A DNA stretch of 64,000 nucleotides from an uncultured Alphaproteobacteria bacterium (GTDB lineage Bacteria; Pseudomonadota; Alphaproteobacteria; CAAHEQ01; UBA3637): NCBI GenBank assembly GCA_934216505.1, contig CAKQBW010000001.1, positions 20,553 through 84,552 on the forward strand, written 5' to 3'. A program made the position numbers and the translations under genes. Below the pieces are notes generated by a model. The model was not told the origin of the DNA, did no database searches, and was given only the letters and a program-made list of their open reading frames with translations. Positions 9,411 through 57,697 of the stretch are shown piece by piece; positions within the stretch are counted from its first letter, which is position 1; the number at the start of each line of letters is the position of its first letter.

Positions 9411-10130
9411 ATGACAGATCCAATTTTTCAAGCCCCTGATATTCCAACGCAAGGCGTAAATGAAGAAAAAACGCCCGAAAGGGAAGCGCAAATGGCTCCA
9501 CAATCGGTGCAACAAAAGCTTGGGTCTTCACAACCTCAAAATGTGCAAGTACAGGCGAGTCCAACACCGCAGGAACCCACTGAGCCTGTATCCCCTGTGT
9601 CGCCTCAAATCCAACCCACTCCGATTCCTCAGCCCGCTCAACCTGAGCCGACTCCTGTAAATCAAGAGGAACAAACAACGGAAACTCAATCGCAAAATCA
9701 AATCAACAATCTAAAGGCAAAATTGGCGGGGTTAGATCTTCAACAGGTGCGTGGAAAGATTCAAACTTATCTGTGGTATGTGTTGGGGGGCTGTTTCCTT
9801 TTGGGACTGATGTTTGGTTGTTCTATGGGGGGAGGCAGTTCTCAACCCGTTCAACAAAAAGTATCAGGTATGGAACGGTTTATTGTTCGCAACAGTGATA
9901 TTCCCCCCAAAGTAAGACGCTGTGGGGTAGTCAATATCTCAACGGAAGCCTGTCGTTATTATGTTTTAAATTCAAATACTTATGACAGGAAAGCGGAGGA
10001 TTTCTTTAAGTTAGTTCAAGATCAGGTAAAAAAGGATGAATATTATATTCGTCAGGTGAATCCTATTTATGCGCAACAACCGATTCACCCAGGGTATTTT
10101 GCCGAAATTTTAGTCCCCGCAACGAAATAG
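9411..10130 (+). CDS. Pro/Gln-rich bitopic membrane protein (N-in, single TM, ~100-aa periplasmic C-domain); possible secretin partner
   Basis: ATG lies 2 nt after the secretin stop. N-terminal 110 aa are P/Q/T-rich. TM segment is IQTYLWYVLGGCFLLGLMFGCSM. A Gly/Ser linker precedes a C-terminal globular part. Confidence 0.5.
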   Translation: MTDPIFQAPDIPTQGVNEEKTPEREAQMAPQSVQQKLGSSQPQNVQVQASPTPQEPTEPVSPVSPQIQPTPIPQPAQPEPTPVNQEEQTTETQSQNQINNLKAKLAGLDLQQVRGKIQTYLWYVLGGCFLLGLMFGCSMGGGSSQPVQQKVSGMERFIVRNSDIPPKVRRCGVVNISTEACRYYVLNSNTYDRKAEDFFKLVQDQVKKDEYYIRQVNPIYAQQPIHPGYFAEILVPATK

Positions 10131-12107: not shown

Positions 12108-13559
12108 ATGAAAATATCTAAAACCGTTTTAAGGATTTTGCTCAATCAATACAATGCTGTGCTGTTGGCTGGATTGTTGGGAACAGTGTTTTCCATACAG
12201 GCGAGGGCAAGTGTTCAAATAACGGGGACTTATGATAATACCACTGAACAAGAAAATGTATCGGTTTCCAGTCCAACCCTTTCGGCCACAACGAAAGCCG
12301 CAGGCGGCGGAAGTGCCAGCGAAAGTTTTACCGCTGATTTGGTAACAACAGATGATTTAGTTACCGCAACCGTTGGAACAGCGGATACTTTGACAGGGCT
12401 GACCGCAACTGTTGAGGAACTCAATTATGTTGATGGGGTTACCAGCAACATTCAAAATCAACTGGATGCGAAACAAGAAACCTTAAATGCTTCCACAGAC
12501 ATCACAGTTGGCAAGATAACGGCCAATGGTGAAATTACGGGAGCGTCCTTATCTGTGGCGGGTGGGGCGATTTCTGGGGGAGCCATTTCTGGGAGTTCCT
12601 TGACGGTGGGTTCATCAAGTGCCATTTCTTCTGTTGATGATGGGGCTAGTGCCTTAACCTCAGGAAATGAGACAACTTTGGCAACAACGGGAACTGTTTT
12701 GAAGTCTGCCGAAAATGCGGCTTATTCAGGGACAACGATTACAGGTGGAACTGCTTCCACTTTGTCTGAGGCCTTAAGTGAAGTGGCCGATCAAGTAAAT
12801 ACAAACACGACCAAAAATACGACCCAAGATACAGGATTAAGTAATTTGGCGGGTAAATTGGGCGTGAGTTATGAGCCCAGTACAGGGGCTGTTGGGGTGA
12901 CGGATTACACTTCCAACAATGTTGTTTCGGACGGCGAAAATGTGGTAGAGGCTATTGGTAAAATTGACACGAAAGTCGGGACAATAACAGGAACGACGAA
13001 TAATATCACAGCGTCTGACACCTTGTCCAAAAACCTCACTGATTTAGATGCCGCCATCGGGGATCGTACCAATTTAGCCAGCAGTAATGCAACCATCAAT
13101 GCGGCGACGACGACTTCGGTTGTTTCTGGACTTCAGGCGACAGGTAATGCTATTGGAGACATGGATTTGACGGGGACAAGGTATATTCTTTCTGCGTCTG
13201 ATTTAACTTCAGCTTCTCGGTTGTTGGATACCAATTTGAATCGTGTAGAGGCTCGTGTGGATAGTTTGGATAAAAAGTATGATGCCCGAATGAATAGTTT
13301 GGATAATAAAATTGACAAAATGGACGATCGGATGAATTCCGGTTTTGCTTCCTTGGCGGCTATGTCAGGATTACAACCCAATGCACGGGCCTGTAATGAC
13401 ACCCAACTTTCCTTGGGGGCTGGGACCTATCGGGGCAAAGTGGGGTATGCGCTGGGGGCTTTCCATTATTTTAATGATAATGTCATGATGAATGTGGGGG
13501 CGTCTTATGCGGGAAATAACAGTACCACTTTCCGTGGGGGAGTTACTTTTGGTTGGTAA
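12108..13559 (+). CDS. trimeric autotransporter adhesin (YadA-like anchor), 483 aa
   Basis: Extended signal peptide. Thr/Ser/Gly-rich passenger. Coiled-coil neck LNRVEARVDSLDKKYDARMNSLDNKIDKMDDRMNSGFASLAAMSGL. C-terminal beta-barrel anchor ends ...GASYAGNNSTTFRGGVTFGW. Confidence 0.75.
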   Translation: MKISKTVLRILLNQYNAVLLAGLLGTVFSIQARASVQITGTYDNTTEQENVSVSSPTLSATTKAAGGGSASESFTADLVTTDDLVTATVGTADTLTGLTATVEELNYVDGVTSNIQNQLDAKQETLNASTDITVGKITANGEITGASLSVAGGAISGGAISGSSLTVGSSSAISSVDDGASALTSGNETTLATTGTVLKSAENAAYSGTTITGGTASTLSEALSEVADQVNTNTTKNTTQDTGLSNLAGKLGVSYEPSTGAVGVTDYTSNNVVSDGENVVEAIGKIDTKVGTITGTTNNITASDTLSKNLTDLDAAIGDRTNLASSNATINAATTTSVVSGLQATGNAIGDMDLTGTRYILSASDLTSASRLLDTNLNRVEARVDSLDKKYDARMNSLDNKIDKMDDRMNSGFASLAAMSGLQPNARACNDTQLSLGAGTYRGKVGYALGAFHYFNDNVMMNVGASYAGNNSTTFRGGVTFGW

Positions 13560-18197: not shown

Positions 18198-18944
18198 ATG
18201 TTTTATCGGGCGGAAAACGGCAGGTCATTGTTGGAAATTATTGCGGTAATGGCGATTATGGGAGTTTTTACGGTGGCCTCTATTGCGGCTTTTCAGGCGG
18301 GGCTAAACTCTGTTCGGGCGAAATATATTATTGAGCAAGTTCAATTAAGGGTGGAAGAAGTGGTGGCCAACTCAGAATTATCAAAGGGTCATAAGAAAAC
18401 CGTCTATACCCCTGAATATGTCAATAAATCTGGGCAAGATAAATATGGCTATTCTTTTAAAACGGTTAATGCGACACAAGGAGATAAGACAATGGCCTTT
18501 ATGTTATTGGGAAATGCAGCTCGATCTCCTACGGTTCAGGTGGAAATTTCGGGTAAAATTTCTTCGGGAATTTGCACCAGTTTAAAGGGAAAAATGGCTA
18601 TCTTGGGGAATGTTGAAAAAGCCACCACTGATAAGGGGGGAGATATTTTAAAAGAACCTTGTCCCGAAGATATTCAAAAAATAACAGTATATGTGAAGAG
18701 AAAAATTAAAAAAATTGTTCGTTCCGGTACAACAGGTCTTTCGGGCCAGACAGGGAGCAGTACCTCTCGTTCATCTTCAGGAATAACAGGCGTGACCACT
18801 CGTGTTGCGGCGCAAAAAAAGTGCAATATTGAAAATGCTCTTTCATGTGATCCATTGGTCTGTGATGAATCAAACGGTTATTATGAATTTGAAGACGAAA
18901 GGGGAAAATGTCAACCTTGTCCTGCTGGAAGTTATTGTGAATAA
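18198..18944 (+). CDS. prepilin-type (type IV pilin-like) protein with C-terminal Cys-rich CPAGSYC motif
   Basis: N-terminus ...ENG|RSLLEIIAVMAIMGVFTVASIAAF has Gly-1, Glu+5 and a hydrophobic helix. C-terminus is ...CDPLVCDESNGYYEFEDERGKCQPCPAGSYCE. Good RBS. Confidence 0.6.
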   Translation: MFYRAENGRSLLEIIAVMAIMGVFTVASIAAFQAGLNSVRAKYIIEQVQLRVEEVVANSELSKGHKKTVYTPEYVNKSGQDKYGYSFKTVNATQGDKTMAFMLLGNAARSPTVQVEISGKISSGICTSLKGKMAILGNVEKATTDKGGDILKEPCPEDIQKITVYVKRKIKKIVRSGTTGLSGQTGSSTSRSSSGITGVTTRVAAQKKCNIENALSCDPLVCDESNGYYEFEDERGKCQPCPAGSYCE

Positions 18945-55694: not shown

Positions 55695-55723
55695 TTGACA
55701 AAATTTCTAAAATGTGATAGAAT
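55695..55723 (+). promoter_or_regulatory. promoter TTGACA-17-TAGAAT with TG extension upstream of small ORF 55752
   Basis: Read directly. Confidence 0.55.
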
Positions 55724-55751
55724 ACACCTATGCTAAAAAAAGGAGTGTTTT

Positions 55752-55931
55752 ATGAATTGTAAAGAAACAGGTGATAAAGTAAGTGTAGCCGCAGGAGTGT
55801 TGTGTTGGCTATGTGTTTTGGGAACGCTGGCTTGTGCTTGTGCACGTGGCTATCAAGAGGTAAAGAAACATTTAGCGAAAAATAAGGCCCCTGCTGTTCA
55901 AATGATGAATGTGGGTCAAAAGATTCGTTAA
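55752..55931 (+). CDS. unlisted small ORF (59 aa) encoding a Cys-rich hydrophobic peptide, possibly entericidin-like
   Basis: TTGACA-17-TAGAAT promoter (55695-55723), AGGAG RBS 6 nt upstream of the ATG. Translation: MNCKETGDKVSVAAGVLCWLCVLGTLACACARGYQEVKKHLAKNKAPAVQMMNVGQKIR. Confidence 0.5.
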   Translation: MNCKETGDKVSVAAGVLCWLCVLGTLACACARGYQEVKKHLAKNKAPAVQMMNVGQKIR

Positions 55932-55984: not shown

Positions 55985-56059
55985 GACCCTATCATCTAAT
56001 GGTTAGGATACAGCCCTCTCAAGGCTGGTATACGGGTTCAAATCCCGTTAGGGTCGCCA
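55985..56059 (+). tRNA. tRNA-Glu (anticodon read as CUC)
   Basis: 75-nt cloverleaf: acceptor GACCCTA/TAGGGTC, D-stem ATCT/GGAT, anticodon stem CAGCC/GGCTG with loop CTCTCAA, T-arm ACGGG-TTCAAAT-CCCGT, discriminator G, encoded CCA. Followed by a hairpin plus T-run. Confidence 0.8.
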
Positions 56060-56085: not shown

Positions 56086-56353
56086 ATAAAGGATATTTTT
56101 TGTTATTCTTACTTTTTTAAGTTCCTTTGTCCTTCTTATGCAAGCGAGGATTTGTTGGGGATGGTATCGTTCCCGAACAGGTGGAAATTTCGTCAAAGAG
56201 GGCTCTACCCTAACAGATGCCCGAACAGGTCGGGCATGACAATTCCCTGTTTTGGCCTGTATTTACGGGCTGTGTGGGGTAAAAAGAGAGAAGCCTTAAA
56301 ATCCACCTTTCAAACAAGCGATAAAGCCCGTCAATAAAGGGAAGTAAGGTATA

Positions 56354-56373
56354 ACAAAAACGATCGTTTTTGT
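56354..56373. promoter_or_regulatory. perfect palindrome ACAAAAACGATCGTTTTTGT, copy 1 of a candidate operator pair upstream of the pilin-like gene
   Basis: 20-bp perfect inverted repeat; a second copy of the core CAAAAACGATCGTTTTTG lies 134 bp downstream. Confidence 0.5.
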
Positions 56374-56487
56374 CAATATGCTTTTTAGCGTCTTTTTGAA
56401 TTTTGATAATTTTAAAATAACTTATTGATTTTAAATAAGAATTTAATCGTTTGGTCATTTTCTCTCTTTCCACATTTTCCCCTATTC

Positions 56488-56505
56488 CAAAAACGATCGT
56501 TTTTG
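56488..56505. promoter_or_regulatory. perfect palindrome CAAAAACGATCGTTTTTG, copy 2, abutting a TATAGT -10-like hexamer ~45 nt upstream of the pilin-like ATG
   Basis: Identical 18-bp core followed immediately by TTATAGTGGG. Confidence 0.5.
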
Positions 56506-56557
56506 TTATAGTGGGATTCGCAAAGATTTTATTACTTATTTTTGAGGAGGAACTTAT

Positions 56558-57697
56558 ATGAAAAAAACAAAAGAATCAGGTCGCAGTATGGTTGAAATGC
56601 TGGGTGTTTTGGCCATTATTGGGGTGTTGAGTGTGGGCGGTATAGCGGGCTATACGACCGCTATGAACAAACATCGGGCGAATAAGATTTTAAATGGGGC
56701 GTCTGTGCGGGCCATCGTAGTTTCCACGCAAATCCAAAGAGGCTCTGCGGCACCGACACTCGGCGAATTTACAGATAACGAAGTCGGTGGGGCGAGACTT
56801 GGGACAGGTGTTCAAAACGCAGATGGGACAGCTACTTGGACCACAACAGACAAACGCTTTAGTTTGACTTTGACAGGGGTAAATGAAGATATTTGCACCC
56901 AAATGAAAGCCATGAAAGGGGAAAATGGCATCATCAAAGCCATCGCCGATGATTGTACCACGATTACCTATAATAACGATTTAACTGCAACGACTTTCAT
57001 AACGGACAATAAGGATTCCACGAGTTGCGAAAGTGCGGGCGGGGCTTGGAACGAAGCAACCAAGACCTGTGGGTGTCCAGGGCGCTATACAGGCTCTAAT
57101 TGTGAAATCGCCCCTACCACCTGTCCTTCAGAAACAACTCCCACCGAAGGCGGAAAGTGCAAGTGGTGTACTGATGAGGGAGACTGTGTCGTCTGTGAGA
57201 AGGAAGAAGAAGTAAAATGTGCTGACCTCCAATGTGGCTGTTATAACCCTAAAACCGAAAACGCAAAGTGTGGCAACTTTGCCTGTAAAACCTGTGAAAT
57301 AAAGAGTGATACCCCTGATGTTATTTGTGCTGAATACGGTAGTTGTATCTGCTATAACAAAAACACACAGAATGTAAAATGTGGCAACAAAAGATGTGGA
57401 ACCTGTGAAATAAAGAGTGATACCCCTGATGTTATTTGTGCTGAACACGGTAGTTGTATCTGCTATAACAAAAACACACAGAATGCAGGATGTAACAACA
57501 GCTACTGTAAAACCTGTGAACTAAAGAGTGATACCTCTGATGTTATTTGTCCTGGATATGGTGATTGTATCTGTTATAATAAGAACACACAGAATGTAAC
57601 ATGTAACGACTATAGATGTGGAACCTGTGAAATAAAGAGTGATACCCCTATCGCACGATGTGAGGATAATGGCACATGTTCCTGTGTGGCGGAGTAG
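56558..57697 (+). CDS. prepilin-type protein with large Cys-rich tandem-repeat C-terminal domain (379 aa)
   Basis: N-terminus ...SG|RSMVEMLGVLAIIGVLSVGGIAGYTTAMNKHRANKIL is pilin-like. C-terminus holds 4 tandem 37-aa modules CKTCEIKSDTPDVICAEYGSCICYNKNTQNVKCGNKR. Strong RBS GAGGAGG. Confidence 0.6.
   Translation: MKKTKESGRSMVEMLGVLAIIGVLSVGGIAGYTTAMNKHRANKILNGASVRAIVVSTQIQRGSAAPTLGEFTDNEVGGARLGTGVQNADGTATWTTTDKRFSLTLTGVNEDICTQMKAMKGENGIIKAIADDCTTITYNNDLTATTFITDNKDSTSCESAGGAWNEATKTCGCPGRYTGSNCEIAPTTCPSETTPTEGGKCKWCTDEGDCVVCEKEEEVKCADLQCGCYNPKTENAKCGNFACKTCEIKSDTPDVICAEYGSCICYNKNTQNVKCGNKRCGTCEIKSDTPDVICAEHGSCICYNKNTQNAGCNNSYCKTCELKSDTSDVICPGYGDCICYNKNTQNVTCNDYRCGTCEIKSDTPIARCEDNGTCSCVAE
57285..57697 (+). 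repeat. ~3.7 tandem copies of a 111-bp (37-aa Cys-rich) in-frame repeat in the pilin-like gene
   Basis: CCTGTGAAATAAAGAGTGATACCCCTGATGTTATTTGTGCTGAA recurs at 57291 and 57402, with diverged copies at ~57513 and ~57624. Confidence 0.75.

Follow-up and report, generated by a model that had tools for sequence, protein, structure and literature searches.

Twin palindromes upstream of a pilin-like gene of an uncultured gut alphaproteobacterium: probable recombination sites of an invertible promoter

Invertible promoters and the master serine invertases that act on them are well known. In the Hin system, a fully symmetric hix site (hixC) supports inversion, including that of a 200-bp promoter segment (PMC2427008). 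In Bacteroides fragilis, the single unlinked serine recombinase Mpi flips many promoters, some of which are strongly biased towards the off state (PMC4747536, PMC10403206). Computational surveys already list invertible elements (invertons) in Proteobacteria (PMC11602134), and the kind of switch discussed here is therefore a known one. The DNA analysed in this work is a 64-kb stretch (hereafter, the window) from an uncultured alphaproteobacterium, in which two copies of a perfect palindrome precede a pilin-like gene. These palindromes are probably the recombination sites of an invertible promoter switch, on which a serine invertase of the Hin/Gin/Mpi type would act in trans.

The region lies between a tRNA-Glu(CTC) gene (55985-56059), which has its own terminator-like hairpin, and a 379-aa open reading frame (ORF). 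An Rfam scan of the window returned only this tRNA, leaving the region without a known RNA element. Further upstream (55695-55931), a strong promoter, TTGACA-17-TAGAAT with a TG, stands before a 59-aa Cys-rich ORF (55752-55931) and the tRNA. This small ORF is conserved, and it appears among the gene calls for other assemblies of the species too.

Scanning of the window located the 18-bp perfect palindrome CAAAAACGATCGTTTTTG twice (Table 1), with 133 bp from start to start and 115 nt between the copies. No further copy occurs in the 64 kb, even with up to three mismatches allowed; shuffled controls gave a mean of 0.08 matches, with two or more in 1 of 100 shuffles. The first-pass annotation had described two identical palindromes 134 bp apart, with none noticed in the rest of the window, and a TATAGT element abutting the second copy about 45 nt before the ATG. 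The spacing was essentially right, and the other two observations were borne out: a single T separates the proximal palindrome from TATAGT (56507-56512), and 45 nt lie between the end of this element and the ATG at 56558. Two features had been overlooked. The palindromes are the cores of a 23-nt inverted repeat, TATAACAAAAACGATCGTTTTTG and CAAAAACGATCGTTTTTGTTATA, 100% complementary in the repeat finder, in which the symmetry extends outward as TATAA before the left copy and TTATA after the right one. The pair flanks 115 nt and ends 47 nt upstream of the ATG, which is the geometry of an inverton. Moreover, the distal palindrome is followed by TCAA, so that the minus strand reads a perfect -35 hexamer, TTGACA. 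This inner edge is the sole asymmetric feature of the site pair. An A-rich stretch, ctaaaaagcatat, precedes the minus-strand hexamer and, judged by sequence, may be an UP element. Each palindrome can be read as two half-sites, CAAAAACGA and TCGTTTTTG, with a central AT, as in sites of the Hin/Gin type.

Table 1. Coordinates of the features of the proposed switch (positions in the window)
Feature	Position	Strand	Remark
Distal (left) inverted repeat	56350-56372		TATAA plus the palindrome (56355-56372); proposed serine invertase crossover site
-35 hexamer TTGACA	56371-56376	-	Lies across the inner boundary of the distal site; directed away from the gene as found
Proposed invertible segment, 115 nt	56373-56487		Half on the TTGACA side conserved, other half variable among copies
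Proximal (right) inverted repeat	56488-56510		18-bp palindrome (56488-56505) plus TTATA; fills the spacer of the gene's promoter
Poor -35 hexamer ATTCCA (3/6)	56484-56489	+	Faces the gene in the orientation found
Extended -10 TGtTATAGT	56504-56512	+	Outside the proposed invertible segment, fixed
Cassette left arm	56217-56345		Conserved; hairpin, motif and invariant block
Pilin-like gene, 379 aa	56558-57697	+	Proposed controlled gene; ribosome-binding sequence GAGGAGG at 56544-56550

Two dyad-symmetric sites, one of which overlaps a promoter, also correspond to a dual-operator layout. In this alternative, a dimeric helix-turn-helix repressor or activator would sit on both palindromes, perhaps looping the 133 bp, and no rearrangement would occur. 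The perfect dyad symmetry of the sites and the filling of the promoter spacer by the proximal one are what such operators would show. We consider this reading unlikely, on grounds that begin with the promoter itself.

Promoters were scored as matches to TTGACA-N16-18-TATAAT, out of 12. As found, the plus strand offers the gene ATTCCA-17-TATAGT, which scores 8/12 here and in 8/8 copies from the lineage of the window. No plus-strand promoter of the native region reaches a score of 10, and a consensus promoter scan found nothing between the sites. When the segment is inverted in silico at the palindrome centres, the gene faces TTGACA-17-TATAGT, with 11/12 matches. At the level of sequence alone, inversion thus changes the gene-facing promoter element from 8/12 to 11/12. 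The same score of 11/12 with a 17-bp spacer is reached after inversion in 16/16 cassettes from the window lineage and from RGIG10246, a rumen alphaproteobacterial metagenome-assembled genome (MAG). Promoters of at least 11/12 occupy only 10 positions in the 64 kb, mostly before operons (ribosomal protein clusters, rpsD), and the genome uses canonical promoters.

The palindrome ends in TG (56504-56505), and the -10 element is therefore of the extended TGnTATAGT type, which may permit expression without a good -35. In RGIG10246, the native state already scores 10/12 in 4/8 copies, and the contrast between on and off may be small there. The outward-facing TTGACA has no evident use as it stands: a leftward -10 that would serve it is not conserved in the 17 cassettes tabulated, and there is no gene on its left side. 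Static operators leave this conserved hexamer and its A-rich stretch unexplained. The hexamer makes sense at the distal inner edge only with flipping, which favours inversion.

The proposed switch unit would span 133 bp, with each site built in hix/gix style from two inverted half-sites around the central AT. The enzyme would be a small serine DNA invertase of the Hin/Gin/Mpi type whose gene lies elsewhere in the genome; it would bind both sites as dimers, pair them, cut the centre of each palindrome, and rotate the 115-nt segment. The crossover would fall within the 17-bp promoter spacer of the pilin-like gene, so that only the -35 and the upstream half would be exchanged, while the -10 (TGtTATAGT) would stay fixed. 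As sequenced, the gene would be off or low, facing ATTCCA-17-TATAGT with the strong TTGACA parked away from it; after inversion, it would be on, facing TTGACA-17-TATAGT. The predicted junction strings of the inverted state are GGTATAACAAAAACGATCGTTTTTGGAATAGGGG and ATATTGACAAAAACGATCGTTTTTGTTATAGTGGG. The bound recombinase could itself act as a repressor.

The arrangement is not confined to the window. Same-species copies in ENA and Logan assemblies were found through exact-protein look-ups of neighbouring genes and pilin-like homologues; these served as queries because an exact look-up of the 379-aa protein in the contig index gave no record. The first-pass annotation had envisaged a regulon around the palindrome, and the sites do form a multi-locus set, with at least five intact twin-site loci in the window lineage, plus a deleted one (L217), and at least eight in the rumen relative. 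The orthologous gene in another strain is also preceded by the cassette (L071, L185), as are paralogous pilin-like genes in four other chromosomal contexts (L210-L213). One pilin-like paralogue, which adjoins tuf, has no cassette. With the cassette before several paralogous pilin-like genes, one invertase could vary a surface-protein family cell by cell.

Eight copies from the window lineage were aligned. The core of their distal site carries zero or one mismatch, and TTATAGTG, at the -10 element, is invariant in 8/8. The conserved unit is about 400 bp long and comprises the left arm, the distal site, the segment, the proximal site, TTATAGTG, and the 5' UTR. RGIG10246 holds at least eight copies, in which a perfect distal site with the inner TCAA is followed, 132-134 bp downstream, by a slightly degenerate second site and then by TTTAAT, a ribosome-binding site, and a gene. 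In the 4/8 copies with readable downstream ORFs (L001, L028, L049, L055), the product is a small secreted Cys-rich protein.

The left arm is conserved in 8/8 lineage copies. It contains a hairpin, ATGCCCGA-ACAGG-TCGGGCAT (56217-56237), and a motif, CCTGTATTTACGGGC (56256-56270), whose inverted partner lies inside the invariant block AAAGCCCGTCAATAAAGGGAAGT (56323-56345). RGIG10246 carries a similar sequence, CCCGTAAATAYRGG, at an equal distance from the distal site. RNA folding of the arm was insignificant (z = -1.9). The arm may be a site for an accessory protein or an insulator, with the motifs at 56256-56345 as candidate accessory sites. In another strain (L071/L214), the DNA upstream of about 56200 is wholly different: a 780-aa ORF and biotin carboxylase genes take the place of TspO and tRNA-Glu, and the rearrangement breakpoint coincides with the cassette edge.

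Repeats of this kind could also belong to a miniature inverted-repeat transposable element (MITE) or to a relic res site of a recombinase, that is, a non-regulatory 161-bp unit with 23-bp terminal inverted repeats that inserted by chance. The terminal repeats and the multi-copy occurrence in two genomes agree with such an origin, as do some recombinase-linked loci elsewhere with two res-like sites 80-130 bp apart. However, the ends show neither a target-site duplication nor direct repeats, and the 5 nt by which the repeat extends outward are not conserved in the cassette alignment. What is repeated is not the 161-bp unit but the cassette of about 400 bp, which takes in the left arm, the 5' UTR, and even the start of the gene, and which always lies upstream of paralogous secreted-protein genes in a single orientation relative to them. 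The missing target-site duplication and the fixed gene context led us to reject a transposon-like origin, which we regard as very improbable.

All of the 17 cassettes examined (16 from the window lineage and RGIG10246, plus L163, a metagenome contig outside the two lineages) share one orientation, the off state of the model. TTGACA is present in 17/17, and the sites are 132-134 bp apart in every case. The fixed spacing and the common orientation of all intact copies are compatible with static operators, while under the inversion model a bias towards off could explain the single orientation in consensus assemblies. No complete cassette in the on state was found among the 17 intact alphaproteobacterial ones. 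The predicted on junction, TTGACAAAAACGATCGTWTTYGWTWTART, had 0 matches in a metagenome scan of low power, as the collection holds only two or three lineage copies in the off state. We also considered the contig ends, since the left-hand contigs of several assemblies stop at 56335-56337 or 56408. These breaks were rejected as evidence of inversion because they fit repeats shared among cassette copies.

A further trace came from the predicted spurious ORF of the inverted cassette, which was used as a query against the protein collection. Four of the matches are ORFs of the off type, and the fifth (P0125) ends with the junction peptide specific to the on state. One locus matched by the spurious ORF (L218) lies on a short, possibly chimeric contig and was uninformative. 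P0125 belongs to L217, and normal cassettes are present in the sample from which this locus comes. Here, a single, slightly degenerate site remains, and TTGACA-17-TATAGT precedes a pilin-like paralogue, with the junction sequence ...caaaaagacgctaaaaagtataTTGACAaaaaggatcgtttttatTATAGTggg... ahead of the gene. The piece of the segment that adjoins TTGACA has the opposite orientation to that in every other cassette. L217 is collinear with the virtually inverted window except for one 167-nt deletion, which falls between two AAAATTSAAAAA repeats that are direct repeats only in the inverted state. On the simplest reading of this sequence, the locus would be a locked-on derivative fixed by deletion; it could also be an ancestral promoter that was never invertible. 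At the least, L217 suggests that the composite promoter TTGACA-17-TATAGT is used in nature. Static operators leave this locus unexplained.

The distribution of the 18-mer in other genomes may point to the kind of protein that recognises it. In a scan of one genome per species, the exact 18-mer occurs at 70 loci. About 17 of these, from unrelated phyla, carry a gene for a serine recombinase of 180-200 aa (mostly 190-200 aa), and the distance from the palindrome to the start of this gene downstream is usually 13-150 bp. Comparison of three of the recombinases with solved structures gave the Gin invertase (4m6f) as the best match for each (E values from 1e-39 to 7e-50); resolvases (gamma-delta, Tn3) scored 10-20 orders of magnitude worse. 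A serine invertase of the Hin/Gin family is thus a candidate for recognition of the window sites, as far as sequence association can indicate. Genome and metagenome loci L036, L019, L058, and L182 comprise larger candidate invertible segments bounded by the 18-mer and res-like pairs upstream of recombinase genes. Among them, two perfect 18-mers of Sulfidibacter are separated by 1016 bp and have extended inverted flanks, and in Desulfopila an invertase gene lies between one perfect and one degenerate 18-mer.

A motif scan, a profile built from nine invertases, and Pfam on 40 window ORFs revealed no recombinase; between them, the searches covered the 64-kb window, the next 10 kb to its right, and RGIG10246 loci totalling 64 kb. 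The lack of a recombinase nearby is compatible with static operators. However, the 18-mer goes with invertase genes rather than regulator genes, and the neighbourhoods of the cassettes share no regulator gene. A regulator-like gene of the window, encoding an XRE-type protein (5496-6473), is about 50 kb away.

Another reading dispenses with inversion as well. In an epigenetic switch of the pap type, two sites centred on GATC/CGATCG would be differentially methylated in competition with a regulator. The pap layout has a distal and a proximal GATC, which the site pair of the window resembles: about 130 bp separate its two GATC-containing sites, which precede a pilus-type gene, and CGATCG is also a target of the restriction-modification type. 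Nevertheless, the window revealed neither a methyltransferase gene nor an Lrp-like one, and the conserved element is the whole 18-bp dyad instead of GATC alone. Neither the recombinase association nor the evidence of inversion plays any role in such a switch, and we give it little credence.

Inversion itself is observed in a related family of sites. When metagenomes were scanned for pairs of AAACGATCG-type cores separated by 112-142 nt, at least 120 loci were returned, with about two expected by chance according to our estimate. Most of the matches listed belong to a human-gut family (L087-L206, e.g., L138:3800-3968) with the extended sites ATGACTAR-AAAAAACGATCGTTTTTT-YTAGTCAT, placed 138-155 bp apart. 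A capsule-type locus follows at least one member and encodes a WecA-like transferase, a UDP-glucose dehydrogenase, and a UDP-xylose synthase. Four or more of these loci occur in both orientations. In the four contig pairs compared, the 400-nt flanks on each side are 95-100% identical, and the two interiors agree, at 98-100% identity, only when one of them is reverse-complemented. Outer half-sites keep their positions and inner ones move, which places the exchange within the central 14 bp of the palindrome. The occurrence of both orientations between identical flanks shows that twin sites of this class do serve for inversion. A further pair was seen in RGIG3823, a gut alphaproteobacterial MAG from roe deer caecum (L003:4940-5267). 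Its sites lie 154 bp apart directly upstream of a pilin-like gene and have symmetric CTACCAC/GTGGTAG flanks, with a promoter-like TTGAAT-16-TATATT wholly within the segment and facing the gene.

The demonstrable inversion of this sister family stands against static operators. The original operator model, in which a looping repressor or activator occupies both palindromes, is thus retained in part: the sites are dyad-symmetric, putatively protein-binding, and putatively regulatory for the downstream gene, with the proximal one in the promoter spacer by the -10. As the binding protein, a serine invertase is likelier than a looping regulator because of the inverted-repeat pair, the adjacency of the 18-mer to invertase genes, the inversion in the sister family, the inner TTGACA, and the L217 junction.

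The proposed target deserves comment as well. The first-pass designation as pilin-like is moderately supported by the N-terminus, the names of homologues, and the predicted fold, although Pfam and NCBIfam gave no significant match for the 379-aa protein. The N-terminus reads SG followed by RSMVEMLGVLAIIGVL, with Glu at +5. Homologues (4,826 matches) are named type II secretion system protein and occur in Alphaproteobacteria MAGs. An AlphaFold model of residues 1-170 displays a long N-terminal helix and a beta-sheet; its best match among solved structures is the type IVb pilin 9iuf_A (probability 0.97, E 0.036). The C-terminal part consists of Cys-rich repeats, and 3.3 copies of a 111-bp tandem repeat (57289-57649) encode Cys-rich modules (CGTCEIKSDTPDVIC...). 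Metagenome assemblies repeatedly break within this gene, and orthologue lengths range from 344 to 498 aa. The cassette-linked proteins vary in their C-terminal parts, and some carry a C-type-lectin-like motif, WWAARNWCLAHGKSL / LFSALVWCKSIG (L217:2732-3736; RGIG10246, e.g., L055). Judged by these sequences, the proteins may form a family that combines variable adhesin heads with a shared scaffold, pilin-like or secreted.

Other genes of the window were noted as well. Two more pilin-like ORFs (18198-18944 and 58515-59024, the latter between rplT and rpsD) share the N-terminal motif GRS[ML][LV]E[IM] and lack an upstream twin-site cassette. A YadA-anchor autotransporter-like protein is encoded at 12108-13559. 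An eight-ORF run at 282-10130 (up to 997 aa) has no Pfam match except for the XRE-type protein mentioned above, which has a double helix-turn-helix.

If the switch operates as proposed, uncultured gut Alphaproteobacteria vary pilin-like surface proteins by DNA inversion. These bacteria are poorly known members of the animal gut community, and their adhesion, susceptibility to phages, and recognition by the immune system would be affected. To label the region as a repressor operator pair would then mislead annotation. The design would also be compact, with a recombination site serving as the promoter spacer and a 115-nt flip turning a weak promoter into a near-consensus one; such a split promoter would interest designers of synthetic switches. 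Paired AAACGATCGTTT cores with a spacing of 130-155 bp provide a searchable signature, which has already yielded at least 120 candidate switches from metagenomes. A broader proposal is put forward tentatively, as we hold it to be a little less probable than its negation. It envisages multi-locus phase variation by split promoters in uncultured gut Alphaproteobacteria, in which one unlinked Gin/Mpi-like invertase would cut 17-bp spacers and switch pilin-like adhesins singly (lectin-like secreted proteins in the rumen relative). These loci would have the AAACGATCGTTT core site in common with the capsule invertons that gut Bacteroidales carry, and pairs of invertase and site would then be shared across phyla in the gut.

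In the searchable literature, the coverage of which is incomplete, we found no description of this site (AACGATCGTT) or of the split-promoter arrangement, and nothing relevant on invertons in Alphaproteobacteria. The host group of uncultured gut Alphaproteobacteria, the pilin-like protein family as targets, and the split promoter appear to be new.

Among described systems, the capsular polysaccharide promoters under Mpi share several traits with the cassettes: short segments between inverted repeats, many per genome, upstream of surface-structure loci. One unlinked serine recombinase acts on many loci in trans there, as is proposed here. The Mpi repeat consensus, ARACGTWCGT, has the same core style as AAACGATCGT of the window, and the Bacteroidales-like capsule-locus family with A6CGATCGT6 sites, which inverts in metagenomes, adds to the likeness. 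The differences lie in the alphaproteobacterial host, in pilin-like and small secreted targets instead of capsule loci, and in a site core that is a perfect 18-bp palindrome. Moreover, the crossover apparently falls between -35 and -10, so that half a promoter would move, and the recombinase is here a predicted one.

In Hin/hix and Gin/gix, too, the site has a 2-bp centre between two inverted half-sites, each about 12 bp long and with an A-tract; hixC reads TTATCAAAAACC-AT-GGTTTTTGATAA, compared with ATAACAAAAACG-AT-CGTTTTTGTTAT in the window. The closeness to Gin of the recombinases encoded beside the identical 18-mer points the same way. However, Hin and Gin segments measure 1-3 kb, with the invertase gene and an enhancer inside or next to them, whereas the window segment has 115 nt and no invertase gene nearby, and many loci are targeted here instead of one.

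The fimS element of Escherichia coli type 1 fimbriae, inverted by FimB and FimE, is similar in that a pilus-type gene varies in phase when a short promoter segment directly before it inverts. Unlike the window locus, fimS relies on tyrosine recombinases encoded by adjacent genes, has 9-bp repeats, and holds the whole promoter inside its 314-bp element. A parallel to the promoter assembly is provided by circle junctions of insertion sequences such as IS911 and IS30, where recombination joins a -35 at a repeat end to a -10 and creates a strong promoter. Those junction promoters arise from transposition intermediates, whereas the twin sites described here would form a reversible chromosomal switch for a host gene.
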